32,000 bases of DNA from Candidatus Omnitrophota bacterium. GTDB taxonomy: Bacteria; Omnitrophota; Gorgyraeia; Zapsychrales; JANLHA01. The notes beneath the pieces are model-generated. The model was not told the DNA's origin. It worked only from the letters and a program-made list of their open reading frames with translations, and ran no database searches. The stretch is taken from assembly GCA_963662715.1 (NCBI GenBank), contig OY759724.1:1710001-1742000 (forward strand). Direction: 5' to 3'. Positions within the stretch are counted from its first letter, which is position 1, and each line of letters opens with the position of its first letter. This document shows positions 3,877-6,969 of the stretch, in pieces. The position numbers were made by a program, and so were the translations under genes.

Positions 3877-6800
3877 ATGATCGTTTTTTTTATCGGAACA
3901 ATATGTATTTCCGCCGGGTTGGGCACGATTGCCTGGCTTATGTGGAAGGAAAAAAGGATAGAAGACTCTATCCGCAAGAAAAACGCCCCGGTCTATAATC
4001 AGCCTGTCACAACCTCGGAGCTTTTGGACCGGATAGGTTTGCGCCGTGAGCCGCTACCGTCCCCGAATTCCCCCAAGGCTTCCCCGGGAGAAGAGTCGCT
4101 GGACGTTTTTTCCGCTTTAGATGATACGAATAAAGAAGATATCAACAAGGCTCTGGAACTTTCAATCCAACATGATGATTTAACGAAAGAACACCGCCAT
4201 ATGCAGGAGCATCATGAGAGGCTGCAGGCGTTGATTGTTGATAAGAAACGTATTTTAAAGAACACGCGCAGAGCTCTGCGCAGCGAACGCCGGTATATTC
4301 AGGAGTTTGACCATATGCGGGACCGTTTGAATCATAAGATCGAAACAGCGAAGGAAGAGCGCCGGATGATTCAAAATAATCTTAAAGAAAAACAGGCTTC
4401 AGGCCGGGCTTTTCTGACGCGTGTCAATAATTTGGAACAAAGAATTAAAGAGCTGGAGACCTCTTTCCGGGAAAAGGAGCTGGCCATCAAGGATAGTATG
4501 ATAACAGTCCAGAAAGACCAGAAGCGGGCTGCTGAAATAAAAGAGAAGATACAGGAAAGAGAAAAGACCGTTCAGGAAAAAAGCGATAAATTGCTGGATT
4601 TGATCGGCCGGATAAAAAAGAGAGGCGATACGGCCATGGAATATGTCCGGCAGCAGATCGGTATTGATATCCGGATATGGGAGGAAGAACTCTTGGCGCC
4701 GCCGGTCGTCGAAATTCCTGAGCCGGAAGAGAAAATGGTCCCGGCCGGGGAAGCTGCCGGTGAAGGCCTGGAAGCCGAACAACCTCTTGAAGAGGGCGTT
4801 GAGGCGGCCGCTCAGGAAGCCGTCCCCGTTGCCGGGGAGGCCCAGCCTGTGCCAGAAGAACGGGGAGGGGATGCTGTCCTGGCTGATGTCCGGAACATCG
4901 GGATTATCGCTCATATCGATGCCGGTAAAACGACGACCACGGAAAGAGTCCTTTATTATACCGGGGTCATTCATAAAATGGGGACGGTCGATCAGGGTAA
5001 TGCGACAATGGACTGGATGGCCCAGGAGCAGGAACGGGGGATTACGATCACATCGGCCAATACCACATGTTTTTGGAAAGGCAAGAAAGTGAACATCATC
5101 GACACTCCCGGACACGTTGATTTTACGGTTGAGGTAGAGCGTTCCCTGAAGGTTCTTGACGGGGCGGTTGTTGTGCTGTGCGCCACAAGCGGCGTGCAGT
5201 CTCAGACAGAGACGGTATGGCGGCAGGCCGACCGGTATCATGTCCCGAGGATATTTTTTATTAATAAAATTGACCGTATGGGTGCGGACTTTTTCCGGGT
5301 GCTTGAACAGATTGAAGACCGTATCGGAGCTAATGTGGCGGCCGTCCAGATCCCTGACGGCACGGAAGACCAGTTTAAAGGCATTGTGGATGTGATCCAT
5401 CAGAAGTATATCCATTACCTTGATGACGAAGGAATGAAGTTCGAGGAACAGGACATCCCGGAACCCCTGAAAGCGAAAAGCCAGGAGGTGCGCAAGATCC
5501 TGTTGGAAAGATTGTCCACGTGTGATGACGATATCATGGAAAAAATGCTGGCAGAACAGGAAATCTCCGCAGAAGACATTGTCCCTGCGATCCGGCGCGC
5601 TGTTGTTAAAAACGCCTTTTTCCCCGCTTTGGTCGGAACAGCCCTGCGCAACCGCGGGGTGCAGAAAGTCCTCGATGCCATTGTGGATTACCTGCCTTCG
5701 CCGTTGGAGGTTCCTCCGGTGTCCGGGACACGGCCCAGGACAGAGGAAACCCTTGAACGGCATCCTTCGGTCGCGGAACCTCTTAGCGCGTTGGTTTTTA
5801 AGATTGCCTCCGATCCTTATGTCGGGAAGTTGTTCTATACCCGGATTTATTCCGGAATCATTGAATCCGGAGGCACGGTTTACAACTCATCCTCAGGCAA
5901 GCGGGAGCGCGTTGCGAAGATCGTTGTGATGCATGCCAATAAGCAGGAAATTGTCCCGCGCGCCGGTGCCGGGGAGATCGTCGCTTTAGTCGGCCTTAAG
6001 ACAACGAAATCCGGTGATACGCTGTGCGCTGAGAACCAACCCATCCTCTTGGAAAGTATTGAATCTCCGGAGCCGGTTATCTCAATGGCCATTGAACCGC
6101 AAACCAAGGCGGACCAGGATAAGATGGGGCTTATTTTAAGGAAATTCCTCGATGAAGACCCGTCATTGAGGATGTCCTATGATCATGAGACCGGCCAGAC
6201 ACTCCTGTCCGGGATGGGGGAACTGCATTTGGAGATTATTATCGACCGTATGAAACGGGAACATAACCTAGAGACGAATATCGGACGTCCGCAGGTCGCT
6301 TACCGGGAGACGATTAAAGAGAAAGTGGAGAAAATCGAGGGCAAATTTATTTCCCAGACAGGCGGTCGCGGGCAATACGGGCATTGTGTTATTGAAATGG
6401 AACCCAGTGAAAAACCGGGAGACGGAATTAAATTTATCGATAAAATCAAAGGGGGCGTCATCCCGCGCGAATATATCCCTTCCGTTGAGAAAGGCATCAA
6501 TGCCGGTTCGGAAAGCGGTATTCTGGCCGGGTATCCGGTCACGGACTTTACTGTGACTCTCGTTGACGGGTCTTTTCATGAGGTTGATTCGAGTGACATT
6601 GCTTTTCAGCTCGCGGCCAAGGCCGCCCTTAAAGAAGGGCTGAGGCGCGGAAAATCCGTATTCCTTGAACCGATCATGAAGCTGGAATGTGCCGTCCCGG
6701 AAGAATTCATGGGAGCGGTGATCGGGGATTTAAACAGCCGCCGGGCTAAAATTATTAATATGGGCGTGCAGGGAAAGTTAAAGACGGCTTTGTGTGAAGT

Positions 6801-6969
6801 CCCCTTATCAGAAATGTTTAATTATGCCAATGCCCTGCGTTCTTTAACTCAAGGGCGGGCGTCTTTCTCCATGGAGCCCTGTTTTTATGCGGAAGTTCCC
6901 TATCATATTTCTGAAAAAATAAAAGCGGAGAGGGAAGAATTGATGAAGAAAAAGGAAGATGGGAAATAG
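3877..6969 (+). CDS. fusA: Elongation factor G family GTPase carrying a ~335-aa N-terminal extension (TM helix + coiled coil + acidic Pro/Glu/Ala linker)
   Basis: From aa ~336 onward the protein shows full EF-G architecture:
- G1: AHIDAGKTT, nt 4909 onward
- G2: RGITI
- G3: DTPGH
- G4: NKID
- [10 protein letters not shown]
- Domain IV: [11 protein letters not shown] and [10 protein letters not shown]

The C-terminal domain V is also present. Aa 1-335 form one uninterrupted frame with the EF-G core. Aa 2-23 are hydrophobic ([22 protein letters not shown]), aa ~100-255 are heptad-rich and charged, and aa ~268-335 are E/P/A-rich. Confidence 0.85.

Follow-up and report, generated by a model that had tools for sequence, protein, structure and literature searches.

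The window analysed here is a stretch of 32,000 nucleotides from a Candidatus Omnitrophota contig. On its forward strand, the open reading frame at 3877..6969 starts with ATG, contains no internal stop and encodes a protein of 1030 aa followed by a stop codon. Pfam identified priA (953-2800) and fmt (2878-3819) upstream of it. Downstream, a consensus scan gave weak candidates for a terminator-like hairpin (7025..7043, forward strand) and for a promoter-like site before the next gene (7058-7086, forward strand), and a search of the window with Rfam returned nothing. An earlier note on this DNA had read the protein as an EF-G fused in frame to a transmembrane (TM) anchor, a coiled coil and an acidic linker, and this description was borne out on every point tested. 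The same architecture is carried by ~32 distinct homologues from independent assemblies, and all the named ones belong to Omnitrophota. The architecture of this long EF-G paralogue is solid; its function is a proposal.

The protein begins with a predicted TM signal-anchor helix (aa 1-23, 3877..3945; this and all further parts are on the forward strand). Alignment of the homologues then defines a juxtamembrane basic 'EKK' flank with a conserved short motif, T-x3-LL-x-R-x-G-L (SELLDRIGL), at aa 24-60 (3946..4056), in which AF2 models a short helix at aa 46-52. An S/P-rich spacer at aa 61-85 (4057..4131) differs in length among the homologues and is predicted to be disordered, with pLDDT below 50 for aa 54-89. 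The coiled-coil stalk of ~163 residues occupies aa 86-248 (4132..4620) and leads to two short helices at aa 249-276 (4621..4704), modelled by AF2 at 251-261 and 265-272. These helices contain a clade-conserved stretch of 13 residues that is kept in the window gene and in P0002, P0004 and P0001. A polyanionic, disordered linker rich in E, A and P follows at aa 277-334 (4705..4878). The remainder, aa 335-1030 (4879..6966), is a complete EF-G core consisting of the G domain with its G' insert and domains II, III, IV and V, as recognised by Pfam, TIGR00484 and AF2.

Membrane anchor, stalk and linker

The N-terminal segment at aa 1-23 has a Kyte-Doolittle 19-residue mean of 2.14 and is the sole stretch above 1.6 in the whole protein; AF2 places a helix at aa 2-36. 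The hydrophobic segment of 22 aa that the earlier note had seen here is conserved in 26 of the 30 long homologues, in which the N-terminal mean is 2.1-3.2, and the other four look like truncated gene calls. In the window protein no residues precede the TM helix and a K/R-rich flank follows it. Across the family, 0-1 K/R residues lie before the helix and 1-8 within the 15 residues after it. The C-terminal flank of the helix is also rich in acidic residues. As expected of a single-pass signal anchor, there is one hydrophobic segment of ~20 residues above the TM threshold, with K/R residues favoured on the cytoplasmic side. From hydropathy and the positive-inside rule, a single-pass, N-out/C-in topology is predicted. 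The C-terminus is placed in the cytoplasm because K/R residues are enriched after the TM helix and because EF-G needs GTP and ribosomes.

With its TM helix followed by a helical rod and a spacer rich in Pro and Glu, the long EF-G recalls TolA and TonB. This layout, and the lipoprotein-type cyclophilin gene that adjoins stand-alone relatives of the extension (see below), might suggest an exported protein that begins with a type II anchor or a Sec signal peptide and whose coiled coil and EF-G would be periplasmic and non-translational. Such an arrangement is highly improbable. There is no positively charged n-region, the hydrophobic core, at 22-23 residues, exceeds the length expected in a signal peptide, and the K/R residues lie on the C-terminal side of the hydrophobic segment. 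Moreover, all the residues for GTP and ribosome contact are kept under a constraint like that of the cytoplasmic paralogue, which would be senseless outside the cytoplasm.

AF2 models the stalk as one continuous helix over aa 86-248 with pLDDT of 78-89, which would be ~24 nm long if straight. Hydrophobicity in the coiled-coil region has a periodicity peak at 3.51 residues, and the heptad a/d score has a z value of 5.9, a score reached by none of 500 shuffles. The charged, heptad-like region previously estimated at ~150 aa corresponds to this helix. In the alignment, the stalk contains the family motifs RKEFNK-like and R(I/V)NxLEExIK, and E187 is invariant. The E/P/A-rich spacer, previously given as ~65 aa, is the linker at aa 277-334; it consists of 26% E, 19% A and 12% P, has a net charge of -14 and is modelled with a pLDDT of ~30. 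Across the family the linker has 47-130 aa and a net charge of -6 to -27. No conserved cleavage motif was seen in it among the aligned homologues, in which both its length and its sequence vary. Searched against the PDB, a profile of the extension gave nothing beyond sub-threshold matches to generic coiled coils such as SMC and keratin. Pfam and NCBIfam found no family above threshold in the extension or in its stand-alone relatives, only generic coiled-coil matches.

The EF-G core and its paralogue in the str operon

Pfam domains cover aa 337-1014 of the protein (GTP_EFTU 337-608, D2 635-718, III 731-803, IV 805-925 and C 929-1014), all above threshold. The EF-G equivalog model TIGR00484 (EFG I) matches aa 335-1020 with 988.1 bits against a cutoff of 659.4, spanning model positions 7-690 of 691. 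The canonical str-operon EF-G of a relative (P0027) scores 989.5 bits on the same model. Scores on the EF-G2/EFG II models NF009377 and NF058620 stayed below the cutoffs (529 bits against 890 and 467 against 1000), as did the score on the tetracycline ribosomal protection model NF012153 (413 bits against 775). The G motifs and domain IV loops, which had been described as intact, were each located in the core: AHIDAGKTT at 345, RGITI at 387, DTPGHVDF at 409, NKID at 463 and GTALRN at 587, with the domain IV loops at aa 827 and 897. Among 25 long homologues, the motifs G1-G5, with the catalytic His of DTPGH, do not vary, nor do the tips of the domain IV loops. The core is ~60% identical to Thermus thermophilus EF-G over the full length and ~70-75% identical to the EF-G encoded in the str operon of Omnitrophota. 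Compared with crystal structures of EF-G, its AF2 model reaches a target-normalised TM-score (TMt) of 0.8-0.93.

In the 696 columns of the core, no residue separates long from canonical EF-G at 90%/90%, and at relaxed thresholds only I908 and K1024 are weakly clade-diagnostic. The core therefore shows no sign of subfunctionalisation. No clade-specific indels were found in the long-form core, which is apparently fully functional.

These data bear on a possible role of the protein as a ribosome tether, in which EF-G would serve mainly as a high-affinity dock that holds translating, idle or hibernating ribosomes at the membrane and not as a turnover translocase. The protein is built like a tether, the stand-alone homologues of its extension end in a short binding-type peptide motif, and the reach of stalk and linker would suit the capture of large particles. 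Pure docking, however, should relax the constraint on catalytic residues, yet there is no variation in the His of DTPGH, in the P-loop and switch regions or at the loop tips of domain IV. On the equivalog model the core cannot be told from canonical EF-G, its dN/dS is 0.03-0.06, and EF-G-GTP binds only transiently as long as hydrolysis and release can proceed. We therefore consider a docking role rather unlikely.

A 306-kb contig of a relative (ERZ21869516:contig_29) holds both forms of EF-G. Its long form (P0003) lies after priA-fmt, and P0027, of 700 aa, lies within rpoB-rpoC-rpsG-fusA-tuf-rpsJ. The window gene is outside the str operon (rpsL-rpsG-fusA-tuf), a location that is typical of EF-G and not defining. 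The long EF-G is a second paralogue, as the earlier note had suspected from its position, and the clade also keeps a normal EF-G. The priA-fmt...GalT-GalT-gap neighbourhood is common to close relatives only. No conserved neighbourhood was found in distant long-form members, and the genomic context gives no functional hint.

Conservation, start codon and origin of the extension

The homologues were recovered by a full-length protein search and an exhaustive profile search. The N-terminal 335 aa gave only one partial match in a word-indexed protein database, a scan of genome contigs with a single sequence yielded no confirmed relative, and megablast of the gene against plasmids gave no match. 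The ~32 homologues are 30 long proteins and two short NCBI calls. All come from uncultured metagenome assemblies in ENA, JGI, NCBI and Logan, and long-read contigs of 3.3 Mb are among these. In a tree of EF-G cores, the 30 long proteins and the two short calls formed one clan, supported by 43 of 50 NJ bootstrap replicates. GC3 is uniform over the extension, the core and the neighbouring genes. The dN/dS ratio was 0.20 for the TM helix, 0.12 for the coiled coil, 0.30 for the linker and 0.03-0.06 for the core. Every part of the extension is under in-frame purifying selection (dN/dS 0.12-0.30).

Where the extension joins the G domain, neither a stop nor a frameshift, the concern raised earlier, is present in the window gene or in ~30 independently assembled homologues. 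An assembly or annotation artefact would mean that a TM/coiled-coil gene and an adjacent fusA paralogue were merged by a sequencing error. A homologous stand-alone TM/coiled-coil family does exist, and two NCBI records call only 745 aa (P0039) and 757 aa (P0006); no contig carrying P0006 was located. However, the frame is uninterrupted in the independent assemblies, the 3.3 Mb long-read contigs among them, and the 745-aa call sits inside an open frame of 1116 aa with TM helix and coiled coil, indicating a truncated gene call. The EF-G portion lacks a separate start codon, the linker is under in-frame purifying selection, and the fused forms do not carry the C-terminal motif seen in the stand-alone genes. 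An artefact is thus effectively refuted.

The ATG at 3877 and the first codons are conserved at the DNA level in four loci, and upstream of the ATG there is no conservation. As stated in the earlier note, no SD precedes 3877, though many genes of the window also have none. The note had further proposed that an internal ATG at 4735 (M287) could give a short isoform. The Met is present and is preceded by GGAAGAG, but the isoform has no comparative support, with M287 conserved in none of the homologues. M287 was rejected as a conserved feature, being absent even in the closest homologues (77-80% identity). The linker/core boundary has no conserved Met, and the invariant L335 is encoded by CTG.

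A latent reservoir or dual isoforms could nevertheless be envisaged, in which soluble EF-G would arise by proteolysis of the linker or from an internal start such as M287. Every member has a disordered, protease-accessible linker, the window has the SD-like GGAAGAG before ATG 4735, and IF2, of which isoforms are made from internal starts, provides a precedent. Nevertheless, neither M287 nor the SD-like sequence is conserved at 77-80% identity, no conserved Met lies at the boundary with its CTG-encoded Leu, the linker lacks a conserved cleavage motif, and the genome already has a canonical soluble EF-G. Release of a soluble form is therefore improbable.

The extension profile detected 373 proteins, 85 of them at E<=1e-30, and nearly all are stand-alone proteins of 180-700 aa. 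These have a TM helix, a coiled coil and a low-complexity tail without EF-G and are annotated as 'hypothetical protein' (P0122-P0269). They match positions 1-~320 of the profile at E values of 1e-24 to 1e-70, and BLASTP between the extension and the stand-alone proteins gave 25-39% identity and 75-165 bits in both directions. The fused and stand-alone forms share the TM helix, the coiled-coil motifs and LLxRxGL, and both have a disordered tail. The profile and BLASTP matches show common ancestry of the extension with a larger family of stand-alone TM/coiled-coil/low-complexity proteins in Omnitrophota, a relationship that is new here. A C-terminal motif, (F/Y)L(K/S)LxPD(I/V)(L/I) (FLKLxPDIL-type), occurs in 66 of 147 stand-alone proteins, in none of 24 fused proteins and in 4 of 147 shuffles. 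The stand-alone genes have a conserved neighbourhood that adjoins a cyclophilin gene. This cyclophilin is lipoprotein-type and probably periplasmic, which leaves a small doubt about the membrane side of the module in the stand-alone family.

The earlier note had allowed that the N-terminal region might prove to be a separate conserved gene upstream of EF-G in relatives. No such upstream gene was found; the homologous stand-alone family exists elsewhere in Omnitrophota genomes. In the L005 genome a stand-alone gene and a fused form lie 650 bp apart. Since both forms coexist in at least this genome, the module appears to derive from the stand-alone family or to be its sister, and mis-fusion is not indicated. 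For P0016, the possibility that its extension is a recent copy of the neighbouring stand-alone gene was rejected, as the neighbour is not among the best matches. The fusion probably had a single origin in an Omnitrophota ancestor, in which a duplicated fusA would have been joined to a gene for a membrane-anchored coiled-coil tether, with EF-G replacing the C-terminal peptide motif of the tether family.

A candidate membrane-tethered EF-G and its known counterparts

The best overall explanation, to which we give a probability of about 0.6, is that this protein is a membrane-tethered, active EF-G of single fusion origin that carries out ordinary translocation near the membrane. An uncleaved N-terminal signal-anchor helix (N-out/C-in) would keep the protein in the membrane, and the coiled-coil stalk of ~160 residues would reach ~24 nm into the cytoplasm. 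Two chains most likely pair in the stalk, which would present two EF-G heads. The polyanionic disordered linker of 50-130 residues would be repelled by anionic lipids and rRNA and would leave the head free to dock in the ribosomal factor-binding site. The head may then perform ordinary GTP-dependent translocation and probably also recycling with ribosome recycling factor (RRF). Because a tethered head cannot diffuse away, its action would be confined to ribosomes no more than a few tens of nm from the membrane. Elongation capacity might in this way be enriched where membrane and secreted proteins are made, while the str-operon fusA would serve the bulk cytoplasm. The need for tethering a freely diffusing factor in small cells is not obvious.

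A broader and decidedly speculative extension is that the Omnitrophota tether family builds a membrane-proximal translation zone, in which one branch would carry an active EF-G and the stand-alone branch would recruit a partner, possibly ribosomal or translational, via the FLKLxPDIL-type motif. If true, this would be the first spatially compartmentalised supply of an elongation factor in a bacterium. Very long membrane-anchored proteins are unusually abundant in Omnitrophota (bioRxiv 10.64898/2026.06.07.730766), and a translation zone may be related to them.

No description of a membrane-anchored EF-G was found in the literature searched. EF-G is generally regarded as a core factor that is always soluble and diffuses freely. 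A tethered active EF-G would mean that the cell controls where elongation or recycling capacity is located and not just its amount. It would also be a natural test case for membrane-localised translation and for the reach of a tethered translational GTPase that still cycles on the ribosome. The analysis reveals an uncharacterised, Omnitrophota-specific family of membrane tethers. Annotation pipelines at times cut the long form down to what looks like an ordinary EF-G, which may explain why it has been overlooked.

The long form has the same five domains, G motifs, domain IV loops and equivalog score as canonical EF-G (fusA, TIGR00484), but it adds 334 aa of N-terminal TM anchor, coiled coil and acidic linker and lies outside the str operon. 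EF-G2/EFG II, spdEFG1/2, EF-G1A/1B of Pseudomonas aeruginosa and EF-G2 of Bacteroides are soluble proteins of ~700 aa that differ in their cores (PMC3150367, PMC3832671, PMC4342817, PMC6989115). A survey of translational GTPases does not mention 'membrane', 'transmembrane', 'coiled' or 'N-terminal extension' (PMC4342817). These known paralogues are likewise second genes outside the str operon, and both copies in P. aeruginosa are of the EFG I type, as here. In contrast to them, the core of the long form is essentially unchanged and the novelty is the membrane tether.

Outside the EF-G family, an analogy can be drawn with FtsY, in which a GTPase is also held at the membrane by its N-terminal region. 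FtsY, the SRP receptor, is a translation-associated GTPase with a long acidic A domain in E. coli and an N-terminal TM helix in some bacteria. However, it has an SRP54-type NG domain and no coiled-coil stalk, and neither SRP54 nor a related Pfam domain was detected in the long EF-G. ZipA, RNase Y and EzrA combine an N-terminal TM helix with a cytoplasmic C-terminus; between the helix and a functional head lie a region that is helical, coiled-coil or charged and a flexible linker. The long EF-G has the same layout without any sequence relationship to them, and its head is a translation factor. The structures 4wpo, 4wqf and others in the PDB are of an engineered L9-EF-G chimera made for crystallography of 70S-EF-G, bound in the ribosomal factor site. 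As in the long form, a module is joined to the N-terminus of EF-G via a helical segment, although the chimera is artificial and soluble and has a short linker. As these chimeras on 70S illustrate, a fusion at the N-terminus does not preclude binding to the ribosome. The closest counterpart of the extension is the stand-alone Omnitrophota family, which is homologous to aa 1-~320 of the long EF-G and differs in having a C-terminal motif in place of EF-G.

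The long EF-G and its canonical paralogue

The long EF-G gene (3877-6969, + strand) is a 1030-codon open reading frame without interruption. A Pfam search found a complete EF-G at aa 337-1014 (GTP_EFTU, EF-G_D2, EFG_III, EFG_IV and EFG_C, each far over threshold) and no match in aa 1-336. The earlier note had read the protein as a competent EF-G, and every G motif and the two domain IV loops were located as it described. The window protein shares ~60% identity with T. thermophilus EF-G over the full length, and its modelled core can be superposed on crystal structures of EF-G (TMt up to 0.93). 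It scored 988.1 bits on the NCBI EF-G equivalog model, compared with 989.5 for the canonical str-operon copy (cutoff 659.4), and fell below the cutoff on the EF-G2 and Tet-protection models. Judged by these profiles, the core is an EF-G member in the strict equivalog sense, and not EF-G2 or Tet-type.

The gene lies after priA and fmt, and a second paralogue had been suspected for that reason. A relative's contig, ERZ21869516:contig_29 (305,891 bp), bears this out. It carries a str-type fusA encoding a 700-aa EF-G inside rpoB-rpoC-rpsG-fusA-tuf-rpsJ-rplC and, ~90 kb away, a 1037-aa long form after priA-fmt, with synteny as in the window. The 3.3-Mb contig of the closest homologue has the same priA-fmt synteny. 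Neighbour joining of 121 EF-G cores gave a tree in which one side of a single split consisted of all the long forms and two proteins annotated as short (43/50 bootstrap). Mean core identity was 0.74 inside the long clan, 0.73 inside the canonical set and 0.69 between them. No core position separated long from canonical EF-G at a 90%/90% criterion and the core had no clade-specific indels; under relaxed criteria only I908 (vs L) and K1024, in the C-terminal tail, passed as long-clade positions. We regard the architecture of the long EF-G and its paralogy with high confidence.

As noted earlier, no SD precedes 3877, which is also true of about half of the window genes. A consensus scan found a terminator-like hairpin directly after the stop codon (7025-7043, +) and a sigma-70-like promoter match ahead of the next gene (7058-7086, +; 10/12, extended TG). 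These suggest that the long EF-G gene closes a transcription unit, which may begin at or before priA-fmt. Directly downstream are tandem GalT/HIT-superfamily genes (galactose-1-phosphate uridylyltransferase-like, DUF4921/DUF4931; 7250-8269 and 8212-9273, +), the second of which probably starts later than TTG 8212 because the listed ORFs overlap by 58 nt. GAPDH follows (9336-10334), and the GalT-GalT-GAPDH order is kept in the loci of two close relatives, L002 and L004. Both loci also have, at the same relative position, the 1150-aa fusion of an MFS transporter, acyltransferase and AMP-binding enzyme found at 13283-16735 (+), an Aas-like lysophospholipid recycling architecture. Further along, a 469-aa TPR-repeat protein (20881-22290) precedes a 341-aa protein with a C-terminal Peptidase_M54 (archaemetzincin-like) match (22301-23326, +), and a Mut7-C RNase with an N-terminal ubiquitin-like domain (Ub-Mut7C; 26291-27082, +) adjoins a 1052-aa UvrD/REP-type helicase (27152-30310, +).

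Anatomy and conservation of the extension

The three parts that the earlier note saw ahead of the core, a hydrophobic N-terminus, heptad-like sequence and an E/P/A-rich spacer, were all recovered. Residues 1-23 are the sole segment over the Kyte-Doolittle membrane threshold (19-residue mean 2.14). The AlphaFold2 model, for which 25 long homologues were aligned, opens with a helix (aa 2-36) and a second, short one (aa 46-52). Disorder is predicted for aa 54-85, then a single unbroken helix spans aa 86-248 (pLDDT 78-89) and two short helices reach to aa 272. Between these and the EF-G fold, aa 277-330 are predicted to be disordered (pLDDT about 30). The hydrophobic periodicity of the long helix peaks at 3.51 residues, and its heptad a/d score, not reached by any of 500 shuffles, lies 5.9 SD above them; a coiled coil of this type would be ~24 nm long. 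The disordered stretch, in which Glu makes up 26%, Ala 19% and Pro 12%, has a net charge of -14.

Related EF-Gs do bear the extension, a point that the earlier note had left to be checked. A full-length search gave ~30 distinct clusters (989-1185 aa) aligned to ~100% of the query, three at 77-80% identity to the window protein and the others at 52-61%; all the named ones are Candidatus Omnitrophota or Omnitrophica. Of 30 N-termini, 26 have a strongly hydrophobic segment of ~20 residues (KD 2.1-3.2) with an 'EKK' flank containing K/R behind it; the other four appear to be gene calls cut short at the N-terminus. The alignment keeps the order TM helix, T-x3-LL-x-R-x-G-L, variable spacer, coiled coil (~200 columns with conserved motifs, E187 invariant), acidic linker and EF-G core. 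The P/A/E-rich linker has 47-130 residues and a net charge of -6 to -27 in all members. At the DNA level, ATG 3877 and the following codons are conserved in four loci and the upstream sequence is not, so conservation begins exactly at this start codon. Between L002 and L004, the two closest available relatives, dN/dS was 0.20 for the TM and juxtamembrane region, 0.18 for the spacer, 0.12 for the coiled coil, 0.30 for the linker and 0.06 for the core, which indicates that each part of the extension is translated in frame and under constraint. GC3 is equal across extension, core and neighbouring genes. On this comparative evidence the long EF-G is a real conserved protein, and an assembly or annotation artefact is effectively excluded.

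Two NCBI records within the long clade are annotated at 745-757 aa only. For one, P0039 (745 aa, 'elongation factor G', called at L012:4001-6238), the contig frame is open for 1116 codons (L012:2888-6238) and takes in the TM helix and coiled coil; the 745-aa version is therefore a gene-calling choice. Truncated public calls may hide the family in databases. The homologue P0001 is called from 385 (L001:346-1227), 10 codons downstream of the conserved ATG. Dual isoforms had been considered because GGAAGAG precedes an ATG in the acidic linker (4735, M287). This ATG occurs only in the window genome, with even the closest homologues lacking it, and so is probably there by chance. Nor do the aligned long homologues have a conserved Met where linker and core meet. 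A long form serving with a short isoform, or as a latent reservoir, seems improbable to us.

A stand-alone tether family

The extension profile, searched exhaustively against 1.84 billion representative proteins, matched 373 at E<=1e-3 and 85 at E<=1e-30. Long EF-G fragments aside, the best 150 of the 373 are stand-alone proteins of 180-700 aa with no EF-G domain. They share the N-terminal TM helix and the LLxRxGL motif with the extension and go on to a coiled coil and a long tail of low complexity. Those with names are 'hypothetical protein [Candidatus Omnitrophota bacterium]', and none matched Pfam or NCBIfam; this related, Omnitrophota-specific membrane-tether family is previously uncharacterised. 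The genes are complete. Members lie at L008:3643-5295, L009:7001-8851, L010:7001-8512, L011:7001-8098 and L005:9675-11660, all in related loci and none in the window. Their neighbourhood is conserved: Rce1-like, a xanthine-dehydrogenase-like trio, a small ORF, NTP_transf_3 (opposite strand), the tether, a lipoprotein-type cyclophilin (a PPIase), XdhC and PNPOx. At L005 a long EF-G, P0016, lies within such a neighbourhood, 650 bp from a stand-alone paralogue. The two are not mutual closest relatives, which fits a single old fusion and later coexistence of fused and stand-alone forms. The motif (F/Y)L(K/S)LxPD(I/V)(L/I) was found 8-88 residues from the C-terminus in 66 of 147 stand-alone proteins (4/147 in shuffled controls) and in none of 24 fused forms. 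This short peptide is probably partner-binding, and in the fused proteins EF-G takes the place that it has at the tether end of the stand-alone ones.

Possible role and known systems

The predicted topology is N-out/C-in, since no residues precede the helix and K/R residues follow it (positive-inside rule). Every GTP- and ribosome-interacting residue is retained, which makes this the sole sensible topology; an exported protein is effectively excluded. The coiled coil probably dimerises, giving two EF-G heads. Anionic lipids and rRNA would repel the linker, acidic in every member, which would work as a flexible leash. The PDB has 70S ribosomes with engineered L9-EF-G N-terminal chimeras bound to them, so EF-G can carry an added part at its N-terminus without a steric clash at the factor site. 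The tethered EF-G would carry out ordinary translocation and recycling, limited to those ribosomes that lie at most a few tens of nm from the inner membrane, and the canonical fusA product would serve the bulk cytoplasm. The EF-G core of the long form is constrained like housekeeping EF-G. The long form could instead act as a tether that docks ribosomes, which we consider unlikely, if somewhat less so than a reservoir or dual isoforms. Membrane-restricted ordinary translocation and recycling is the most likely role, with a probability of roughly 0.4-0.5; the sequences all come from uncultured organisms and function is read from sequence alone.

Full-text literature searches turned up no EF-G with a membrane anchor or an N-terminal extension, and neither did a trGTPase survey (PMC4342817), an Omnitrophota overview (PMC10066038) or a 2026 Omnitrophota complete-genome preprint. 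The long EF-G is a real and conserved variant in the architecture of a core translation factor and, as far as we could find, one not described before. Specialists in translation would find it unexpected, and with it localised elongation becomes directly testable. According to the 2026 complete-genome preprint, membrane-anchored proteins of great length characterise part of the Omnitrophota, and a physiological link to them is conceivable. Known EF-G paralogues are divergent (PMC3150367, PMC4342817), whereas the long form departs from housekeeping EF-G only by its attached parts. With no sequence relationship to either, it can be likened to ZipA, RNase Y and EzrA in its tethered-enzyme layout, and to FtsY, likewise a GTPase that is associated with translation, is held at the membrane and has an acidic region at its N-terminus.
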